DNA of 46,142 nucleotides from Escherichia phage ULINTec7. The stretch is taken from the sequence record MZ997841.1, one strand, 5' to 3'. Position numbers and translations under genes: made by a program. The notes under the pieces were generated by a model. The model was given only the letters and a program-made list of their open reading frames with translations, searched no databases and was not told the origin of the DNA. The stretch's first letter is position 1. Every line of letters begins with the position of its first letter. Positions 1-46,142 of the stretch are shown here, one piece after another.

Positions 1-634
1 CCATATGGGGTCGGTCGGCGGTTGACCTAGGAATTGGGCGGGGCGGGTCCGTCTTCAACCTGCTGCCGCAGGAAGCTCGACGGGTGGGCGAGGGCTTGCC
101 TTGTACTCGCTTAGTGGTACACAAGGAGAACGCCTAGGAAGCGCTAGGGCACGCCTTAGTATTGGACAAGGTGATTGCCTTAGTTCAACCGCTTAGGGCT
201 TACACGGGCCGTTTTAGGGCCATTCCTGAGCGTTTGACAGGGTGTGAGGGCGTGGGCTATCTGTTCGTTTCGTTCACTCCGCTTGCGCTACGTTCACTCG
301 CTCACGTGTACCTTAGGTTATTCCTTGATGGATAGCTTAGATTAGCCTTAGTGGATTACCTTAGTTAAAGCCTTAGTGCTTCACTTAGTATCAGCTTAGT
401 AGTGTACCTTAGTAAGTCTTAGTGTCTTCTCTTAGTGATTGCACATGCAAGCATGTAAGATGCCATTAGGTCGCGGTCGGTAGACCGCTAAAAGAAGGAG
501 AATAGTAATAAGATGCAGTAGGAGGAACACCAGAAGCCTAGCCAACCTAGCCTATCCTAGCTCTGTATCTATTGCTTTTCCTTAGTCTAACACGTTAGAC
601 AACCTATCTTATTCTTAGTGATGGTAACTTAGTG

Positions 635-663
635 TTGACAAGATAATCTTAGTGTAATACTAT
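635..663 (+). promoter_or_regulatory. Candidate host sigma70-type early promoter
   Basis: TTGACA at 635-640, 17-nt spacer, TACTAT at 658-663, upstream of the first early ORFs. Analogous to the T7 A-promoters. Confidence 0.45.
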
Positions 664-735
664 GCATCACGTAGGCGGTGCTGAGGCACCTAGTAGCCAG
701 CTAGTAAGGCATATGAAGAGACTAGCGCTTACATT

Positions 736-760
736 GCTCTTTAACAATTTGCTTAGTGTA
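736..760 (+). promoter_or_regulatory. Early-region conserved element, copy 1 (GCTCTTTAACAAT core, partial)
   Basis: Core GCTCTTTAACAAT at 736-748, lying 17 nt upstream of the ATG at 765. Confidence 0.4.
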
Positions 761-7875: not shown

Positions 7876-8662
7876 TAACATTAGCGCCGCCATGTAGTAA
7901 TACATGGGCAATAATCGTGTGAACTCAGGGGAAGACTAGAACAGTTAATCCTGAGCCAAGCTAGGCACACCTCAAATTCAAAGGAGGTGTTATGCAATTT
8001 AAAGAAGTACCAGATCACAGTAATTATATTTGTTATGAGAATGGCACGGTTGTTAATCGTAAGACTGGAAAGGTCTTGAAAGAAGATACAACTAACCGAG
8101 GTTATAAGCGGATTACAGTAAGCAAGGGCAACAAGGTAACACGTTGGAGTGTGCACCGTTTAGTTGCTTTACTGTTTATCCCTAACCCTCATAATTATGA
8201 AACTGTTAATCACATATCGGGAGATAAGACGGATAACTCTGTTAGTAATCTTGAGTGGATGAGCCAAGAACAGAACCAAGCCCATGCTAAATATACAGGA
8301 CTGTGTCCTAAAGGTGAGGCTGTTGGCACTAATAAGTTCAAAGAGGCAACTATTCATCAAGTGTGCAAGCTAATAGAGAAAGGTTTATCTCGCGGTGAAA
8401 TTATGAAAGCAACGAGCATCTCTAAAGCAACCTTTGATGACATTCGTAGAAGGAAGACTTGGAAGCACGTATCTTGTTCATATAAATGGTGACAATCTGG
8501 TGTGCCTAGAAGGTGCAACGACTATCCCGAAAGGGAGTACAGCCAAGCGGCTGGAAGCGCACGACACCCATCGTGGGTGATGATATAGTCTGGTCTATAT
8601 GGGGACATATAGCAGTTCATAAGAGAACGGGCGTGGCTTAGCGAACCACGTCGAACATAACG
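7876..8662 (+). mobile_element. Putative group I intron carrying an HNH homing endonuclease ORF, inserted in the helicase Walker A codons
   Basis: The 5' exon ends in U (7875) and the insert ends in G (8662). Exon 3' end GGCGU can pair with intron GCGCC at 7884-7888 (P1 with a U.G wobble). The downstream frame opens right after a stop at 8658-8660 with GKTEF and no start codon. Joining gives the contiguous P-loop GAGSGVGKTEF. Confidence 0.6.
7992..8492 (+). CDS. HNH homing endonuclease (intron-encoded)
   Basis: 166 aa with HRLVALLFIPNP...VNHISGDKTDNSVSNLEW, a typical HNH/AP2-type motif; AGGAGG SD upstream; a paralog of the ORF at 10976. Confidence 0.85.
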   Translation: MQFKEVPDHSNYICYENGTVVNRKTGKVLKEDTTNRGYKRITVSKGNKVTRWSVHRLVALLFIPNPHNYETVNHISGDKTDNSVSNLEWMSQEQNQAHAKYTGLCPKGEAVGTNKFKEATIHQVCKLIEKGLSRGEIMKATSISKATFDDIRRRKTWKHVSCSYKW

Positions 8663-10908: not shown

Positions 10909-11016
10909 ATGAATAACTACGACTCTGATTGGGATTTCTACGATTCAATGCAATCTAAACCAGAAAGGAGGGAGGATGAGTTCGAAACAGATCAAATGTA
11001 CGAGGATTTTTACTAA
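10909..11016 (+). CDS. Hypothetical small acidic protein (35 aa)
   Basis: Short ORF that overlaps the start of the HNH gene; weak call. Confidence 0.2.
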   Translation: MNNYDSDWDFYDSMQSKPERREDEFETDQMYEDFY

Positions 11017-11455
11017 CTACATCCTCTACTCTGATGGTCGAGTTCTTAACGAGAAAACCGGACAATATCTAAGAGGTTACTTAGATAAAGATGGGTATCA
11101 TATTATGAATATTAAAGGGAAACACCTTAAAGTTCATCGATTAGTTGCTATCCATTTCATACCTAACCCTAATAATTTACCTGAAGTTAACCATAAAGAT
11201 CATGACCGTCTAAACAATAATGATTGGAATCTAGAGTGGTGTACTCATCAAGATAACAACAAGCATAGCTTACATTTAGTAATAGCTTCTTGTGCTAAAC
11301 GCTATGACTTTATATCACCACAAGGTGTCCATGTAGAAGTCTATAACTTACGTGAGTTTTGTAGGAATAACAACCTACAGCAATCTCATATGGTTAAGGT
11401 GGCTAAAGGTAAAGTAAGACATCATAAAGGTTGGACTAATTATGCTAGATGTTGA
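10976..11455 (+). CDS. HNH homing endonuclease (free-standing)
   Basis: 159 aa with HRLVAIHFIPNP...VNHKDHDRLNNNDWNLEW; AGGAGGGAGG SD; paralog of the intron ORF at 7992. Confidence 0.85.
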   Translation: MSSKQIKCTRIFTNYILYSDGRVLNEKTGQYLRGYLDKDGYHIMNIKGKHLKVHRLVAIHFIPNPNNLPEVNHKDHDRLNNNDWNLEWCTHQDNNKHSLHLVIASCAKRYDFISPQGVHVEVYNLREFCRNNNLQQSHMVKVAKGKVRHHKGWTNYARC

Positions 11456-37194: not shown

Positions 37195-37389
37195 ATGATT
37201 AACTCCGAACTGGTAGATAGTGGTGTGAAGCTTGCGCCACCTGCACTCGTATCAGGTGGGTACTTCCTCGGTATCAGTTGGGATAATTGGGTGTTAATAG
37301 CAACATTCATTTATACCGTGTTGCAAATTGGGGACTGGTTTTATAATAAGTTCAAGATTTGGAGGGAGAAGCGTGAGCGTACACAATAA
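37195..37389 (+). CDS. Holin (T7 gp17.5-like)
   Basis: 64 aa; IATFIYTVLQIGDWFYNKFKIWREKRE resembles T7 gp17.5 VAAIAYTVVQIGAKVVDKMIDWKKANKE; one transmembrane segment and a charged C-terminus. Confidence 0.75.
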   Translation: MINSELVDSGVKLAPPALVSGGYFLGISWDNWVLIATFIYTVLQIGDWFYNKFKIWREKRERTQ

Positions 37390-37672
37390 ACATGCAGCTA
37401 CAGAGGACGAGGTTGGCATTCTGCATGGTGCTATTACCAAAATCTTTAATAAGAAAGCACAGGCAATACTGGACACTATAGAAGAAGACCCAGATGCAGC
37501 ATTGCATTTAGTGTCTGGTAAAGACATTGGAGCTATGTGTAAGTGGGTTCTTGATAATGGTATTACCGCTACACCTGCTGCACAGCAGGAAGAGTCCAAG
37601 TTATCTAAGCGCCTCAAGGCTATCCGAGAGGCATCCAGTGGTAAGATAATTCAATTCACTAAGGAGGATTGA
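37373..37672 (+). CDS. Terminase small subunit (putative)
   Basis: GTG start at 37373 with GGAGGGA SD; sits immediately before the large terminase. Confidence 0.5.
   Translation: MSVHNKHAATEDEVGILHGAITKIFNKKAQAILDTIEEDPDAALHLVSGKDIGAMCKWVLDNGITATPAAQQEESKLSKRLKAIREASSGKIIQFTKED
37466..37488 (+). promoter_or_regulatory. Phage-RNAP promoter inside the small terminase gene
   Basis: AATACTGGACACTATAGAAGAAG. Confidence 0.6.
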
Positions 37673-39570
37673 TGGCTAAGGCAAGAGAATCACAAGCGGA
37701 GGCTCTTGCCAGATGGGAGATGCTACAGGAGTTACAGCAGACCTTTCCCTATACAGCGGAAGGTTTGCTTCTCTTTGCAGATACAGTTATCCATAACTTG
37801 ATTGCAGGCAACCCTCATCTGATTCGTATGCAGGCTGATATCTTGAAGTTCCTATTCTACGGACATAAGTATCGCCTCATCGAAGCGCCTCGTGGTATCG
37901 CTAAGACAACACTATCAGCAATCTATACGGTATTCCGTATTATCCACGAACCGCATAAGCGTATCATGGTTGTATCCCAAAACGCTAAGCGAGCAGAGGA
38001 AATCGCTGGTTGGGTGGTGAAAATCTTCCGTGGCCTAGACTTCCTTGAGTTTATGCTGCCGGATATCTACGCAGGGGACCGTGCATCCGTTAAAGCATTT
38101 GAGATTCATTACACCCTACGTGGTAGTGATAAGTCTCCCTCTGTATCCTGTTACTCAATCGAAGCAGGTATGCAGGGTGCTCGTGCTGATATTATTCTAG
38201 CGGATGACGTAGAGTCGATGCAGAATGCTCGTACGGCAGCGGGCCGTGCCTTGCTTGAGGAACTGACTAAGGAGTTTGAATCTATCAACCAGTTTGGGGA
38301 TATCATTTACCTTGGTACGCCTCAGAACGTAAACTCTATCTACAACAACCTACCTGCTCGTGGCTACTCTGTTCGTATCTGGACTGCACGTTACCCCTCA
38401 GTGGAGCAGGAGCAATGCTATGGTGACTTCCTTGCACCTATGATTGTGCAGGATATGAAGGACAACCCCGCACTTCGCTCTGGTTATGGGTTGGATGGTA
38501 ATAGTGGTGCACCTTGTGCCCCTGAAATGTATGATGATGAAGTCCTGATTGAGAAGGAAATCTCTCAGGGTGCAGCTAAGTTCCAGCTTCAGTTCATGCT
38601 TAACACTCGCATGATGGATGCAGACCGCTACCCACTACGCCTGAACAACCTCATCTTCACCTCATTTGGTACAGAGGAAGTCCCTGTGATGCCTACGTGG
38701 AGCAATGACTCCATCAACATCATCGGTGATGCACCGAAGTATGGCAATAAGCCTACAGACTTCATGTATAGACCTGTGGCTCGCCCGTATGAATGGGGTG
38801 CTGTTACACGCAAGATTATGTATATTGACCCTGCTGGTGGTGGTAAGAATGGTGACGAAACAGGCGTGGCTATAGTCTTTCTGCACGGCACATTCATTTA
38901 CGTGTATCAGTGCTTCGGTGTGCCAGGCGGATACCGTGAATCGTCCCTGAATCGCATTGTGCAGGCCGCAAAGCAGGCGGGTGTTAAAGAGGTATTCATT
39001 GAGAAGAACTTTGGTCATGGCGCGTTTGAGGCCGTTATAAAGCCATACTTTGAACGAGAGTGGCCTGTAACTCTGGAAGAGGATTACGCCACAGGACAGA
39101 AAGAGTTGCGTATCATTGAGACGCTGGAGCCACTCATGGCGGCGCACAGGCTCATCTTCAATGCCGAGATGGTCAAGTCTGACCTTGAGTCAGTACAGCA
39201 CTATCCACTTGAACTACGCATGTCCTACAGCCTTTTCAATCAAATGTCGAACATCACGATTGAGAAGAACAGCCTCCGGCACGATGACCGCTTAGACGCT
39301 CTGTATGGCGCTATACGGCAATTAACTTCTCAGATAGACTATGACGAGGTTACACGGATTAATCGCCTCAGAGCGCAGGAGATGCGCGATTACATCCATG
39401 CTATGAACACACCTCACCTCCGTAGGGCGATGCTCTATGGAGATTATGGCACTGAGCGAAGAGTAACCAACACTTCCGTGGCTATGCAGCAAAGAGTGTA
39501 CGGTCAGAATTACAGGAGTAAATCGGCCAACCGAAATACACTTTCTGCAAGGATTTCAAGGACTTATTAA
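37669..39570 (+). CDS. Terminase large subunit
   Basis: 633 aa; ATPase and nuclease region with IILADDVES; position and size match T7 gp19. Confidence 0.85.
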   Translation: MMAKARESQAEALARWEMLQELQQTFPYTAEGLLLFADTVIHNLIAGNPHLIRMQADILKFLFYGHKYRLIEAPRGIAKTTLSAIYTVFRIIHEPHKRIMVVSQNAKRAEEIAGWVVKIFRGLDFLEFMLPDIYAGDRASVKAFEIHYTLRGSDKSPSVSCYSIEAGMQGARADIILADDVESMQNARTAAGRALLEELTKEFESINQFGDIIYLGTPQNVNSIYNNLPARGYSVRIWTARYPSVEQEQCYGDFLAPMIVQDMKDNPALRSGYGLDGNSGAPCAPEMYDDEVLIEKEISQGAAKFQLQFMLNTRMMDADRYPLRLNNLIFTSFGTEEVPVMPTWSNDSINIIGDAPKYGNKPTDFMYRPVARPYEWGAVTRKIMYIDPAGGGKNGDETGVAIVFLHGTFIYVYQCFGVPGGYRESSLNRIVQAAKQAGVKEVFIEKNFGHGAFEAVIKPYFEREWPVTLEEDYATGQKELRIIETLEPLMAAHRLIFNAEMVKSDLESVQHYPLELRMSYSLFNQMSNITIEKNSLRHDDRLDALYGAIRQLTSQIDYDEVTRINRLRAQEMRDYIHAMNTPHLRRAMLYGDYGTERRVTNTSVAMQQRVYGQNYRSKSANRNTLSARISRTY

Positions 39571-41247: not shown

Positions 41248-41270
41248 ATTTACTGGACACTATAGAAGAG
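41248..41270 (+). promoter_or_regulatory. Phage-RNAP promoter upstream of the tailspike genes
   Basis: GATTTACTGGACACTATAGAAGAG. Confidence 0.8.
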
Positions 41271-41349
41271 GTAAGATAGCGCCGTTCTTTTGAGCGGCCT
41301 ATTACTAGCCAATCTTCATAGGGAGGGTTGGAAAGTAATAGGAGATAGC

Positions 41350-43248
41350 ATGGCTAAATTAACCAAACCTAATACTGAAGGAATCTTGCATAAAGGACAA
41401 TCTTTGTATGAGTACCTTGATGCGAGAGTTTTAACATCAAAGCCATTTGGTGCTGCAGGTGACGCCACTACTGATGATACGGAGGTTATAGCTGCTTCAT
41501 TAAACTCTCAGAAAGCTGTCACAGTCTCAGATGGTGTATTCTCTAGCTCTGGTATTAATAGTAATTACTGTAACTTAGACGGTAGGGGTAGTGGCGTGCT
41601 AAGTCACCGTTCCAGTACAGGTAATTACTTAGTATTTAACAATCTACGTGCAGGTCGCTTAAGTAATATTACGGTAGAAAGTAATAAGGAGACTGATACA
41701 ACTCAGGGGCAGCAGGTATCTCTTGCTGGTGGAAGTGATGTTACTGTAAGTGACGTTAACTTCTCAAACGTTAAAGGTACTGGTTTCAGTTTAATCGCAT
41801 ACCCTAATGATGCGCCACCTGATGGACTTATGATTAAAGGCATTCGAGGTAGCTATTCCGGCTATGCTACTAATAAGGCAGCAGGATGCGTACTTGCTGA
41901 CTCCTCAGTTAACTCACTCATAGATAACGTCATTGCTAAGAACTACCCTCAGTTCGGAGCAGTAGAGTTGAAAGGTACAGCCAGTTACAACATAGTCAGT
42001 AATGTTATAGGGGCAGATTGCCAGCATGTAACTTACAACGGCACTGAAGGGCCAATAGCCCCTTCTAATAACCTTATCAAGGGGGTGATGGCTAATAACC
42101 CTAAGTATGCAGCGGTTGTTGCAGGCAAAGGAAGTACGAACTTAATCTCAGACGTGCTAGTAGATTACTCAACTTCTGATGCTAGGCAGGCTCATGGTGT
42201 TACCGTAGAAGGGTCTGATAACGTCATAAATAATGTGCTTATGTCAGGATGTGATGGTACTAACTCTTTAGGACAAGGGCAGACTGCTACAATTGCACGC
42301 TTTATAGGTACAGCTAATAACAACTATGCGTCTGTATTTCCTAGCTACAGTGCTACAGGTGTTATTACTTTCGAATCCGGCTCTACCCGTAACTTCGTAG
42401 AGGTAAAGCACCCTGGCAGGAGAAACGACCTTCTCAGTTCTGCTAGTACTATTGACGGTGCAGCTACTATTGACGGCACTAGTAATAGTAACGTAGTGCA
42501 CGCACCTGCCTTAGGGCAGTACATAGGTAGTATGTCAGGCAGGTTCGAATGGCGGATTAAGTCCATGTCACTCCCTTCAGGAGTTCTTACTTCTGCTGAT
42601 AAGTACAGAATGCTTGGAGATGGTGCTGTGTCATTAGCTGTAGGTGGGGGCACTTCTTCTCAAGTTCGCCTATTTACTTCTGATGGTACTTCTCGGACAG
42701 TGGCCTTCACCAACGGTAACGTGCGTCTTTCTACCAGTAGCACAGGCTATTTGCAGTTAGGTGCTGATGCAATGACCCCAGATAGTACTGGTACATACGC
42801 ATTAGGTTCCGCCAGTCGAGCATGGTCTGGCGGTTTTACTCAAGCAGCATTCACTGTTACCTCAGATGCTCGGTGTAAAACAGAACCTCTTACTATCTCA
42901 GATGCCTTACTGGATGCTTGGTCTGAAGTTGACTTTGTGCAGTTTCAGTATTTGGATCGGGTTGAGGAGAAGGGTGCAGACTCAGCTAGATGGCACTTTG
43001 GTGTCATCGCTCAGCGAGCTAAGGAAGCTTTCGAACGTCACGGCATAGATGCACACCGCTATGGCTTCTTGTGCTTCGACAGTTGGGATGCTGTATACGA
43101 GGAAGATGCCAATGGCTCTCGTAAGCTGATTACACCAGCAGGTTCCCGCTACGGTATTCGTTACGAGGAAGTACTGATATTAGAGGCTGCATTGATGCGG
43201 CGGACTATTAAGCGTATGCAGGAAGCACTAGCTGCCCTTCATAAGTAA
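41350..43248 (+). CDS. Tailspike 1: beta-helix polysaccharide depolymerase-like protein with C-terminal intramolecular chaperone domain
   Basis: 632 aa from the ATG at 41350 (AGGAG SD). Repetitive Gly/Ser/Thr/Asn/Val-rich beta-helix-like sequence. C-terminus SDARCK...GIRYEEVLILEAA is homologous to the endosialidase C-terminus. Confidence 0.7.
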   Translation: MAKLTKPNTEGILHKGQSLYEYLDARVLTSKPFGAAGDATTDDTEVIAASLNSQKAVTVSDGVFSSSGINSNYCNLDGRGSGVLSHRSSTGNYLVFNNLRAGRLSNITVESNKETDTTQGQQVSLAGGSDVTVSDVNFSNVKGTGFSLIAYPNDAPPDGLMIKGIRGSYSGYATNKAAGCVLADSSVNSLIDNVIAKNYPQFGAVELKGTASYNIVSNVIGADCQHVTYNGTEGPIAPSNNLIKGVMANNPKYAAVVAGKGSTNLISDVLVDYSTSDARQAHGVTVEGSDNVINNVLMSGCDGTNSLGQGQTATIARFIGTANNNYASVFPSYSATGVITFESGSTRNFVEVKHPGRRNDLLSSASTIDGAATIDGTSNSNVVHAPALGQYIGSMSGRFEWRIKSMSLPSGVLTSADKYRMLGDGAVSLAVGGGTSSQVRLFTSDGTSRTVAFTNGNVRLSTSSTGYLQLGADAMTPDSTGTYALGSASRAWSGGFTQAAFTVTSDARCKTEPLTISDALLDAWSEVDFVQFQYLDRVEEKGADSARWHFGVIAQRAKEAFERHGIDAHRYGFLCFDSWDAVYEEDANGSRKLITPAGSRYGIRYEEVLILEAALMRRTIKRMQEALAALHK

Positions 43249-43255
43249 GCAACAG

Positions 43256-43285
43256 GCAGTGCGCAAGCACTGCTTTTCGCGCAAC
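43256..43285 (+). terminator. Putative intrinsic terminator between the tailspike genes
   Basis: Stem GCAGTGC / GCACTGC with loop GCAA, followed by TTTTCGCGCAACTTTTC. Confidence 0.5.
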
Positions 43286-43333
43286 TTTTCTTAAAGGTTA
43301 TCATGATGGTAGCCTTTCAGAAAAGGAGGTTAC

Positions 43334-45769
43334 ATGATTCAAAGACTAGGTTCTTCATTAGTTAAATTCAAGAGTAAGATAGCGGGTGCAATCTGGCGCA
43401 ACTTGGATGACAAGCTCACCGAGGTTGTATCTCTTAAGGACTTTGGGGCCAAAGGTGATGGTAAGACTAACGACCAAGATGCAGTAAATGCAGCGATGGC
43501 TTCAGGTAAGAGAATTGACGGTGCTGGTGCTACTTACAAAGTATCATCTTTACCTGATATGGAGCGGTTCTATAATACACGCTTCGTATGGGAACGTTTA
43601 GCGGGTCAACCTCTTTACTATGTGAGTAAAGGTTTTATCAATGGTGAACTCTATAAAATCACGGATAATCCTTATTACAATGCTTGGCCTCAAGACAAAG
43701 CGTTTGTATATGAGAATGTGATATATGCACCTTACATGGGTAGCGACCGTCACGGTGTTAGTCGTCTGCATGTATCATGGGTTAAGTCTGGTGACGATGG
43801 TCAAACATGGTCTACTCCAGAGTGGTTAACTGCCCTGCATCCAGATTACCCTACAGTGAACTATCATTGTATGAGTATGGGTGTATGTCGCAACCGTCTG
43901 TTTGCCATGATTGAAACACGTACTTTAGCCAAGAACGCACTAACCAATTGTGCATTGTGGGACCGCCCCATGTCTCGTAGTCTGCATCTCACTGGTGGTA
44001 TCACTAAAGCTGCAAATCAGCGATATGCAACAATACATGTACCAGATCACGGACTATTCGTGGGTGATTTTGTTAACTTCTCTAACTCTGCGGTAACAGG
44101 TGTATCAGGTGATATGGCTGTTGCAACTGTAATAGATAAGGACAACTTCACGGTTCTTACACCTAACCAGCAGACTTCAGATTTGAATAACGCTGGAAAA
44201 AGTTGGCACATGGGTACTTCTTTCCATAAGTCTCCATGGCGTAAGACAGATCTTGGTCTAATCCCTCGTGTCACAGAGGTGCATAGCTTTGCTACTATTG
44301 ATAATAATGGCTTTGTTATGGGCTATCATCAAGGTGATGTAGCTCCACGAGAAGTTGGGCTTTTCTACTTCCCTGATGCTTTCAATAGCCCATCTAATTA
44401 TGTTCGTCGTCAGATACCATCTGAGTATGAACCAGATGCGTCAGAACCATGCATCAAGTACTATGACGGTGTATTATACCTTATCACTCGTGGCACTCGT
44501 GGTGACAGACTTGGAAGCTCTTTGCATCGTAGTAGAGATATAGGTCAGACTTGGGAGTCACTAAGATTTCCACATAATGTGCATCATACTACTTTACCGT
44601 TTGCTAAGGTAGGAGATGACCTTATTATGTTTGGTTCAGAACGTGCAGAAAACGAATGGGAAGCAGGTGCACCAGATGATCGTTACAAGGCATCTTATCC
44701 TCGTACCTTCTATGCACGATTGAATGTAAACAAATGGAATGCAGATGATATTGAATGGGTTAACATCACAGACCAAATCTATCAGGGTGACATTGTGAAC
44801 TCTAGTGTAGGTGTAGGTTCTGTTGTAGTTAAAGACAGCTACATTTACTATATCTTTGGTGGTGAAAACCATTTCAACCCAATGACTTATGGTGACAACA
44901 AAGATAAAGATCCATTTAAAGGCCACGGACACCCTACTGATATATACTGCTATAAGATGCAGATTGCAAATGACAATCGTGTATCTCGTAAGTTTACATA
45001 TGGTGCAACTCCTGGTCAAGCTATACCTACTTTCATGGGTACTGATGGTGTTCGTATTATCCCTGCTCCACTTCACTTAGCAGGAGAGGTGGTTGCAGCA
45101 GATATTACTGTCGAACATCTTACCCTGAAGGCAAGTACAAGTGCTGATATTCGCTCAGAGATGCTGATGGAAGGTGAGTATGGGTTTATTGGTAAAACTA
45201 TACCAACGGATAACCCGACAGCCCAACGTGTTATCATATCTGGTGGAGATGGTACAGCAGCAGATAAAGGTGCGCAAATTACCTTACACGGAGCAGGTTC
45301 TAGTACCTCTAGACGCGCAGTATATAATGCCAATGAGCACTTGTTCCAAAGTGGGGCCATTATGCCATACAATGATAACGTGTACCCTGCTGGCGGTCCT
45401 CGTAATAGATTCACTACTATCCACCTTACAAGTGACCCTATTATTACGTCTGATGCCACTCATAAGTACGGCTCACAAGGTATTGATGAGCAAGTACTAA
45501 AGGCATGGGGTAAGGTTTACTTCAAGCAGTACAAGTTGATTGGCGAGATGTCTCGTGGTGTACATCACACTCACTTTGGTGTATTGGCACAAGATATTGT
45601 AGCTGCTTTTGCATCCGAAGGGTTAGATGCAATCGACTTCGGCATTGTCTCCTTCGAAGAAGGTCAGTTTGGTGTTAGATATAGTGAAATCTTAATCTTG
45701 GAAGCTGCCTATACTCGCTATCGTCTTGATAAATTAGAGGAGATGTATGCCGCTAATAAAATCAGTTAA
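43334..45769 (+). CDS. Tailspike 2: endosialidase-like (endo-N-acetylneuraminidase) with C-terminal intramolecular chaperone domain
   Basis: 811 aa. Two Asp-box motifs, SGDDGQTW and SRDIGQTW. N-terminal DFGAKGDGKTNDQDAVNAA. C-terminal TSDATHK...GVRYSEILILEAA chaperone-like region. AAGGAGG SD. Confidence 0.8.
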   Translation: MIQRLGSSLVKFKSKIAGAIWRNLDDKLTEVVSLKDFGAKGDGKTNDQDAVNAAMASGKRIDGAGATYKVSSLPDMERFYNTRFVWERLAGQPLYYVSKGFINGELYKITDNPYYNAWPQDKAFVYENVIYAPYMGSDRHGVSRLHVSWVKSGDDGQTWSTPEWLTALHPDYPTVNYHCMSMGVCRNRLFAMIETRTLAKNALTNCALWDRPMSRSLHLTGGITKAANQRYATIHVPDHGLFVGDFVNFSNSAVTGVSGDMAVATVIDKDNFTVLTPNQQTSDLNNAGKSWHMGTSFHKSPWRKTDLGLIPRVTEVHSFATIDNNGFVMGYHQGDVAPREVGLFYFPDAFNSPSNYVRRQIPSEYEPDASEPCIKYYDGVLYLITRGTRGDRLGSSLHRSRDIGQTWESLRFPHNVHHTTLPFAKVGDDLIMFGSERAENEWEAGAPDDRYKASYPRTFYARLNVNKWNADDIEWVNITDQIYQGDIVNSSVGVGSVVVKDSYIYYIFGGENHFNPMTYGDNKDKDPFKGHGHPTDIYCYKMQIANDNRVSRKFTYGATPGQAIPTFMGTDGVRIIPAPLHLAGEVVAADITVEHLTLKASTSADIRSEMLMEGEYGFIGKTIPTDNPTAQRVIISGGDGTAADKGAQITLHGAGSSTSRRAVYNANEHLFQSGAIMPYNDNVYPAGGPRNRFTTIHLTSDPIITSDATHKYGSQGIDEQVLKAWGKVYFKQYKLIGEMSRGVHHTHFGVLAQDIVAAFASEGLDAIDFGIVSFEEGQFGVRYSEILILEAAYTRYRLDKLEEMYAANKIS

Positions 45770-45896
45770 GCAATCTGCTGTACGCCAGAACACAGAAGAA
45801 CCCATTCAATCAGGACGTGACCCTAAGCAGGCTCATGCCATTGCAAAGGATGTACAACGTCGTGCCTTGAATAAACCTTCTGCATCTTCTGCTTAA
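45747..45896 (+). CDS. Hypothetical small protein (49 aa)
   Basis: Hand-translated ORF overlapping the endosialidase stop; weak call. Confidence 0.2.
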   Translation: MPLIKSVKQSAVRQNTEEPIQSGRDPKQAHAIAKDVQRRALNKPSASSA

Positions 45897-45904
45897 GCAG
45901 GTTA

Positions 45905-46030
45905 ATATCTTAGTGTACACAAGGGCAGACTTAGGTTTGCTCTTAGTGTCCTCAAAGGAGGTTGTAGGTATGTTATCGTTGTTGTGTATACTAAGTGATG
46001 TCCTAGGTCGTAAGAGGTACATTCTTAGTG
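45905..46030. repeat. Right-end copies of the CTTAGTG short repeat
   Basis: TCTTAGTG at 45908-45915, 45941-45948 and 46023-46030; ACTTAGG at 45929-45935; an inverted copy CTAAGTG near 45991. Confidence 0.6.
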
Positions 46031-46142
46031 AAGACCAAATAAGGGACGAGAAGATACGGAGGTCGCTCACAAAGTAACCAAAGTCAAAATTTTGATACAG
46101 GCGTGTGTGAGGTGTCTCGCCCTCGCCCTCGCCGGGTTGTCC

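Follow-up and report, generated by a model that had tools for sequence, protein, structure and literature searches.

CTTAGTG repeats at the right end of Escherichia phage ULINTec7 as putative counterparts of the short repeats beside the T7 terminal repeat

The genome of Escherichia phage ULINTec7 (MZ997841.1) was analyzed as one stretch of 46,142 nucleotides, referred to here as the window, which carries clusters of a short motif, CTTAGTG, at both ends. Here, we consider the copies at the right end. We lean, with measured rather than high confidence, toward the view that these copies belong to a set of short direct repeats lying on both sides of the terminal repeat (TR) and within it, as the counterpart of CCTAAAG in phage T7, and that they are putative sites for a phage factor aiding junction processing. 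Repeat arrays beside the TR are a conserved feature, of a kind already known from T7. The right-end cluster is not uniform: two of its heptamers are conserved, a third "copy" is part of a hairpin, and two others are lineage-specific and fall within a small open reading frame (ORF). Across the junction, the gp48-like gene is followed by heptamer, hairpin, and heptamer (45909-45948), a variable small ORF, a conserved block, and a predicted cut between 46114 and 46115; next come the TR with its four copies, ATCTGTT at a second predicted cut between 259 and 260, a ten-copy array with a period of ~12 bp, and the early promoters (Table 1).

The ends of MZ997841.1 match Vectrevirus (K1E, K1-5, and relatives; Autographiviridae, Molineuxvirinae) at 80-97% identity, and the last 10 kb, including both tailspike genes, is ~93% identical to K1-5 and AAPEc6. 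Because these end matches are accompanied by large ORFs that lie on the + strand in every case and by genes for both terminase subunits, the window represents a whole SP6/K1-5-type podophage genome.

The exact heptamer occurs 20 times in the genome compared to 7.5 ± 2.7 times in dinucleotide-preserving shuffles, an enrichment that upholds the motif as more than a chance string. Nine exact copies fall in 110-758 and three at 45909, 45942, and 46024, all on the + strand. Judged against the + strand rate of the genome interior, both the three copies in 45900-46114 (Poisson P ~1e-6) and the nine in 1-800 (P ~1e-16) are far in excess. Intervals of 250 bp with at least three + strand CTTAGT start only at 1-628, 45775-45909, and 46072-46142 (the last group wraps to the left end), in agreement with the claim of the initial annotation that the same motif is clustered at both genome ends. 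The five-base core CTTAG is similarly directional, with 23 of the 24 copies at the two ends on the + strand. Relative to the predicted TR, the right-end copies are 85-206 bp upstream, four copies are internal, and a run of ten begins 53 bp downstream.

The content of the right-end cluster is somewhat different from the four direct copies and one inverted copy first described. Three direct copies are exact; the fourth, CTTAGGT at 45930, matches at six of seven bases, and the number four holds only for the five-base core. This fourth "copy" (CTTAGG) consists of the final stem base and the TTAG loop of the hairpin. The inverted copy is present but inexact (CTTAGTA on the - strand; TACTAAG at 45989-45995). 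The nearest relatives have CTCAG in its place, and in ULINTec7 it forms a 14-nt inverted repeat together with 45909-45922 (heptamer 1 with its flank). All copies had been placed after the final gene, which is incorrect for 45991(-) and 46024, since both fall within a 35-codon ORF (45970-46077). This ORF is preceded by a strong ribosome-binding site, and its counterpart in the close relative UTI89UKE2 is annotated. These two copies are restricted to this sub-lineage (T145P2, UTI89UKE2). Conservation across genera is limited to 45909 and 45942 (SP6, K1E, K1-5, CrRp3, and Proteus PM93), the former reading CTTAGTA in K1-5. In an alignment of eleven junctions, heptamer 1, the hairpin, and heptamer 2 were conserved among phages of E. 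coli, Salmonella, Citrobacter, and Proteus, and Klebsiella K44 had heptamer 1 and the hairpin without heptamer 2. At the site of heptamer 2, CATAGTG is found in the Klebsiella K13 lineage (CGTAGTG in contig L044) and CTTGATG in phD2B, each close to the left-array heptamer of its own lineage. The spacings within the cluster (21, 12, and 82 bp) are too few to judge periodicity. Separately, a TR-internal copy (110-126) and right copy 1 (45909-45924) share a longer element, CTTAGTG(G)TACACAAGG; the heptamer family may have sub-classes, because comparable extended pairs are also present in SP6, K44, and PM93.

Placement of these copies relative to the physical ends depends on the TR, and the window contains no pair of them: the first and last 600 nt share no string longer than 10 nt, as expected from the earlier remark that the sequence ends show no obvious direct repeat. 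The accompanying suspicion that one TR copy is missing was also borne out. In circularly permuted relatives the equivalent of 46142 continues straight into the equivalent of position 1, and the records of K1E, K1-5, and SP6 carry both copies, measured at 288, 234, and 174 bp, respectively (160 bp in T7). These SP6-type TRs start with TCTC(T)CG... or TCGCC... and end with ...GGGCTA followed by TCTGTT, and the TR of T7 starts with TCTCACAG and ends with ...CCCTA followed by TCTGTT. From these boundaries, we infer a ULINTec7 TR of 287 bp in total, composed of 46115-46142 joined to 1-259. The assembly would thus hold a single TR copy, opened 28 bp inside the repeat. One-copy assemblies are the usual outcome for such phages in assemblers (PMC10438801; PMC3350473), and each junction of a T7-type concatemer contains a single TR (PMC10438801). 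The physical ends are probably 46115 on the left and 259 on the right, and the termini of MZ997841.1 would differ from them, the predicted left end lying 28 bp before the final base. When the junction was used as a query, the block immediately upstream of the predicted left end (46070-46114) alone retained matches to Klebsiella and Lelliottia phages (81-95% identity); it directly precedes TCTC(T)CG..., the opening bases of the K1E and SP6 records. The heptamers therefore flank the TR on both sides, occur within it, and would surround the cleavage sites, which agrees with the proposed placement of the motif at the concatemer junction. We also observed a palindrome, CCCCATATGGGG, at 46141-46142 plus 1-10, ~27 bp into the TR; the equivalent place in T7 reads CCCCCATAGGGGG.

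Table 1. Features at the ends of the ULINTec7 genome and terminase genes (positions in MZ997841.1)
Feature	Position	Strand	Remarks
gp48-like small gene, 49 aa	45747-45896	+	phrog_2423 (function unknown), E=1.5e-20
Heptamer copy 1, CTTAGTG	45909-45915	+	Same place in K1E, SP6, UTI89UKE2, T147P1, CrRp3, K44, PM93
Hairpin AAGGGCAGAC-TTAG-GTTTGCTCTT, 10 bp	45921-45944	+	Conserved across genera
Heptamer copy 2, CTTAGTG	45942-45948	+	Overlaps 3' arm of hairpin
Ribosome-binding site AAAGGAGG	45955-45962	+	Conserved; ahead of 35-aa ORF
Lineage-specific 35-aa ORF	45970-46077	+	Same ORF annotated in UTI89UKE2
Inverted copy	45989-45995	-	Inside 35-aa ORF
Direct copy CTTAGTG	46024-46030	+	Inside 35-aa ORF
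Most conserved junction block (CAAAGTAACCAAAGTCAAAATTTTGATACAGGCGTGTGTGAGGTG)	46070-46114	+	Ends at predicted left-end cleavage site
Predicted TR, first 28 bp (TCTCGCCCTCGCC...)	46115-46142	+	Aligns with K1E record position 1 and K1-5/SP6 TR starts
Predicted TR, remainder	1-259	+	Four CTTAG copies at 110, 155, 179, 192
ATCTGTT, class II pause/termination signal of T7-type RNA polymerases	259-265	+	Straddles right TR boundary
Main left array, ten CTTAG(T/G), all direct	312-437	+	Spacing 24, 11, 13, 12, 12, 11, 13, 10, 13 bp
Five further copies, early-promoter zone	581-758	+	Two bracket the promoter below
Sigma-70-like promoter	TTGACA at 635, -10 TACTAT ending 663	+	Bracketed by two heptamer copies
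Terminase small subunit gene	37328-37672		–
Terminase large subunit gene	37669-39570		–

The closest parallel to this layout is T7, whose relation to ULINTec7 is one of architecture because no DNA homology between the two is detectable. Both genomes have 7-bp direct repeats that favor the + strand (22 of 25 CCTAAAG in T7), an array to the right of the left TR (eight exact CCTAAAG at 175-332 in T7, ten copies at 312-437 in ULINTec7), copies before the right TR (39671 and 39700 in T7; 45909 and 45942 in ULINTec7), and copies inside the TR (three in T7, which recur in its right-hand TR, versus four). In both, the TR ends at TA/TCTGTT (the slash marks the boundary) and variants of the repeat reach the early promoters. 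The two differ in the heptamer itself (CCTAAAG versus CTTAGTG), its period (13 versus ~12 bp), and TR length (160 versus 287 bp). Two elements of the ULINTec7 right cluster, the covarying hairpin and the site of the variable small ORFs, set it apart from T7. Six CCTAAAG copies lie in the interior of the T7 genome. The arrays beside the T7 TR were reportedly named SRL and SRR by Dunn and Studier in 1983. Closer relatives resemble ULINTec7 in more detail: SP6, K1-5, and K1E share its heptamer, order of elements, cleavage-site sequences, and hairpin, but have TRs of different length (174, 234, and 288 bp versus a predicted 287 bp) and a different small ORF before the TR; the ULINTec7 record, unlike theirs, has one TR copy only.

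To place the arrays across lineages, we counted k-mers de novo in the 260 bp after TA/TCTGTT in ULINTec7 and 13 other genomes. CTTAG and CTTAGT were the commonest 5-mer and 6-mer of ULINTec7, and CTTAGT was the top 6-mer in 10 of the 13 others as well. The top motif was CATAGTG in Klebsiella K13PH07C1L, CATGATG in Lelliottia phD2B, and CCTAAAG in T7. IMG/VR contigs found by the conserved cleavage-site pattern repeated the known motifs and added a CTTATG lineage (two of the 29 pattern matches examined, L034 and L045, were chance matches in unrelated contigs). Despite these different heptamers, the order of elements was common to 13 Molineuxvirinae junctions and T7, and the spacing mode of the left array was 12 bp across nine Molineuxvirinae genomes regardless of heptamer (13 bp in T7). 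Use of one motif on both sides of the TR was mixed across lineages: it was seen in ULINTec7 and every other CTTAGTG phage, as well as in T7 and the K13 lineage, but phD2B had only a one-mismatch copy on the right and contig L043 carried unlike motifs at its two ends. Two Klebsiella phages differed from one another (CTTAGTG in K44, CATAGTG in K13), while CTTAGTG was common to phages of E. coli, Salmonella, Proteus, and Citrobacter. On these comparisons, the heptamer tracks phage lineage and not host, a pattern that favors a phage-encoded reader over a host factor or neutral repeats.

The last of these alternatives would hold that the repeats arose by slippage or duplication in the non-coding DNA of the termini and serve no sequence-specific function. 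Copy number in the main array does vary from 7 to 11 among relatives, and K1E has a local duplication of CTTAGCTTAG, as such a process would predict. Nevertheless, the CTTAG core is retained across genera while the spacers diverge, orientation is uniform with a period near 12 bp, whole arrays have switched heptamer in some lineages, and the distant T7 has the same architecture. Taken together, we regard a neutral origin as very improbable.

The right cluster contains a second element, a hairpin with covariation of its own. In a gap-free alignment of nine distinct sequences, the arms of the hairpin pair in 92% of cells, compared to 28-61% when the partner is slid. Compensatory changes were found in two pairs (CG/UA/AU and AU/UG), the covariation score was reached by 1 of 500 shuffles, and the local minimum free energy fold gave a z score of -2.86. 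The structure belongs to the + strand, because several of its pairs are G-U and valid on that strand only. We take the hairpin to be a separate element, most likely forming in + strand RNA, in the simplest case the late transcript. No known structured RNA family was recognized by Rfam covariance models, which gave no match at gathering score across the genome and none at E<=1 in 45600-46142. Neither a sigma-70 promoter nor an intrinsic terminator was found in 45000-46142. A phage RNA-polymerase promoter at the heptamers was also rejected: the consensus TTACTGGACACTATAG was not matched in 41266-46142 or 1-1900, and the about a dozen + strand sites of this pattern all lie between 2391 and 41250. 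The likeness of CTTAGTGTACAC to the phage promoter is superficial.

Downstream of the hairpin, the ribosome-binding site (AAAGGAGGTAACATG in most phages) is followed by small ORFs that are unrelated from phage to phage (25-51 aa where counted; L004, L008, L013, L014, L016); the 35-aa ORF of ULINTec7 has no PHROG match, and PM93 has no small ORF in the slot. Repeats of CTTAGTGTAAyCAAAGG flank the inserted small ORFs in CrRp3, K44, and L043. The slot at 45955-46077 looks like a site for small-gene cassettes. Upstream, the gp48-like gene is the last widely conserved gene ahead of the right-end non-coding region, and its homologues sit after the tailspike gene in SP6, in K44, and in the N4-like phage St11Ph5 (Schitoviridae). 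In the interior of the St11Ph5 genome, a gp48 homologue, heptamer 1, hairpin, and heptamer 2 lie between two tailspike genes (L020 2358-2640; record 63.8-64.0 kb), with a 53-bp stretch of the right cluster at 90.6% identity and the hairpin loop split by ~60 nt. The arrangement suggests that a tailspike cassette has moved from one phage family to another.

These observations raise the alternative that the right cluster is mainly a transcript-level or cassette-boundary element. The hairpin would then serve as a 3' stabilizer, processing site, or attenuator in + strand RNA after the tailspike and gp48 genes, and a repeated intergenic linker, CTTAGTGTAAyCAAAGGAGGT, would supply the variable small ORFs with their ribosome-binding site, making the heptamers part of the linker or passengers rather than end signals. 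The covariation and strand-specific G-U pairs accord with such a role, as do the conserved ribosome-binding site immediately after copy 2 with unrelated ORFs behind it, the linker sequence on each side of inserted ORFs, the movement of the cluster with gp48 and tailspike into an N4-like genome, and the unlike motifs at the two ends of L043. However, downstream of the hairpin site the K13 lineage has its own heptamer, CATAGTG, as in its left array, and T7 has CCTAAAG at the equivalent place without sequence homology. PM93 retains both heptamers and the hairpin without gp48 or a small ORF. The split loop of the St11Ph5 copy, given its 90.6% identity, fits a recent transfer without retained function. 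We consider this reading of the right cluster unlikely, though a serious contender.

At the left end, the heptamer arrays have a polymerase pause signal as a neighbor. ATCTGTT has a single + strand copy in 46 kb, at the TR boundary, and six on the - strand, suggesting that it is avoided in the transcribed sense. Across the 14 genomes compared, T7 among them, TATCTGT always stands at the measured or predicted TR boundary, with ATCTGTC as the form in Klebsiella K13. The class II signal occurs at the T7 concatemer junction (bioRxiv 10.1101/2021.01.11.426313), where maturation and packaging are said to start through an interaction of the paused polymerase with gp18/gp19 (PMC3276506). This signal (CJ in T7) is a neighbor of the heptamer arrays but a separate element, and its use by the SP6-type polymerase of ULINTec7 is predicted by analogy. 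Beyond the ten-copy array, we noted a conserved block at 441-490, GATTGCA-(short hairpin)-AAGATGC..TAGGTCGCGGTCGGTAGACCGC, whose first hairpin differs compensatorily between ULINTec7 (ACATGC/GCATGT) and SP6, K1E, and K44 (ATAGC/GCTAT). A palindrome, GTCTAACACGTTAGAC, at 586-601 between the array and the early promoter is present in all Molineuxvirinae left ends seen, with variants GTCCAACATGTTGGAC in PM93 and GTCTAACATGTTGGAC in phD2B.

The heptamers also reach the early promoters. In ULINTec7, copies abut the -35 element and occupy the spacer of the promoter at 635-663; in K13, L044, and phD2B, the heptamer of each lineage abuts the equivalent -35, and in T7 a CTTAAAG overlaps the -35 region of A1. 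Because copies hug the early-promoter -35 in every lineage, each with its own heptamer, they could instead be operators through which a phage-encoded early regulator acts on promoters of the host polymerase, the copies in the TR region being accessory or a reservoir. A candidate for such a regulator emerged when the presence and identity of all + strand ORFs were compared with SP6, PM93, K44, K13, and phD2B: gp1 (807-989, 60 aa, phrog_9275, unknown function), encoded by the first early gene, is the sole ORF found in all three CTTAGTG genomes tested (SP6, PM93, K44) and missing from K13 and phD2B. This makes gp1 a weak lead for the reader of the heptamer, since the profile comprises five genomes in a region of fast early-gene turnover, gp1 matches only a family of unknown function, and T7 has arrays without a gp1 homologue. 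Moreover, 19 of the 24 end copies are at least 140 bp from any predicted promoter, within the TR or at the other genome end. We therefore doubt that the repeats are primarily operators. In the same comparison, the small and large terminase subunits, the RNA polymerase, and other proteins did not stand out, their profiles following overall divergence; gp48 can be set aside as the reader, since PM93 carries the motif but no gp48.

Returning to junction processing, which we favor, the heptamers would be recognized by a sequence-specific DNA-binding factor, encoded by the phage, which would cover the junction region in a single orientation. By analogy, the terminase small subunit would be the first candidate. 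The factor might help the paused polymerase and the terminase to find and process the junction and to duplicate the TR. Arrays recognized by small terminase subunits adjoin cut sites in other phages, namely, the R sites of lambda cosB and the pacL/pacR boxes of SPP1. Like these, the ULINTec7 heptamers are short repeats of fixed orientation beside terminase cleavage sites, in a genome with terminase genes. They differ in being more numerous, extending over ~900 bp to either side of two cut sites and within the repeat itself, and in that the small subunit is here a putative binder. Position, together with the analogy to T7, makes a role in end recognition or junction processing plausible for the right-end copies. 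Full-text searches for CTTAGTG returned only primer noise, and nothing on these repeats was found under SRL/SRR, pacB, or Vectrevirus TR, the SP6 and K1-5 genome papers lying outside the search.

Additional evidence on a reader shared by the two ends is mixed. In the K13 lineage, both ends changed heptamer together: CATAGTG occurs twice within 140 bp of the TR at the right end of K13 and is absent from the preceding 790 bp, and the same holds for L028, L049, and L051. The support for a shared reader from joint change is real but uneven, with K13 concordant, phD2B partially so, and L043 discordant. The right end of phD2B has only CTTGATG, one mismatch from its own heptamer, and L043 (IMG/VR 3300045988_000301) has six CTTATG in its left array but three CTTAGTG at its right end. 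Given these two cases, joint change at both ends is not general. L043 is probably a recombinant with mismatched ends, and we observed that its right end is nearly identical to that of Klebsiella K44.

Together with phD2B and L043, several further observations weigh against a role in junction processing. Only two heptamers of the right cluster are conserved, and they are entangled with an independently covarying hairpin. The St11Ph5 example indicates that the right cluster can exist away from a genome end. Many copies adjoin or lie in early sigma-70 promoters, which also fits a transcriptional role. The identity of the small terminase subunit does not track the heptamer. Finally, although the T7 short-repeat arrays have been known for about forty years, we know of no demonstrated function for them.

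Two side observations concern other parts of these genomes. In the TR of K13PH07C1L (L015 993-1144), and also in L044, there are five exact and two near copies of TGTGGATAA in a single orientation; this sequence is the complement of the DnaA-box consensus TTATCCACA, and CTTAGTG phages have heptamer copies at those positions. In the ULINTec7 interior, the ORFs at 7992-8492 and 10976-11455 have partial matches in PM93 and phD2B only and none in SP6, K44, or K13. They may be mobile-gene insertions and the source of some of the extra length relative to K1-5.

More speculatively, the heptamer may be a lineage "address" for one putative phage protein that binds the early promoters as well as the two flanks of the TR, linking promoter control with junction recognition. 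We regard this as a long shot. If true, switches of heptamer (CTTAGTG, CATAGTG, CATGATG, CTTATG, CCTAAAG) would divide co-infecting T7/SP6-like phages into groups that are incompatible in packaging or regulation, and L043-like mosaics would be recombinants between two codes.

The practical result of this analysis is a corrected anatomy of the ULINTec7 genome ends; with the missing TR copy of ~287 bp restored, the true genome would be ~46.4 kb. For the family, short-repeat arrays beside the TR are a constant of the SP6-like subfamily as well as of T7. The arrays retain a period of ~12 bp even as the heptamer changes from one phage lineage to another, the changes following lineage and not host. 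Such replacement narrows the question to a phage-encoded reader and offers natural variants with which it may be tested.

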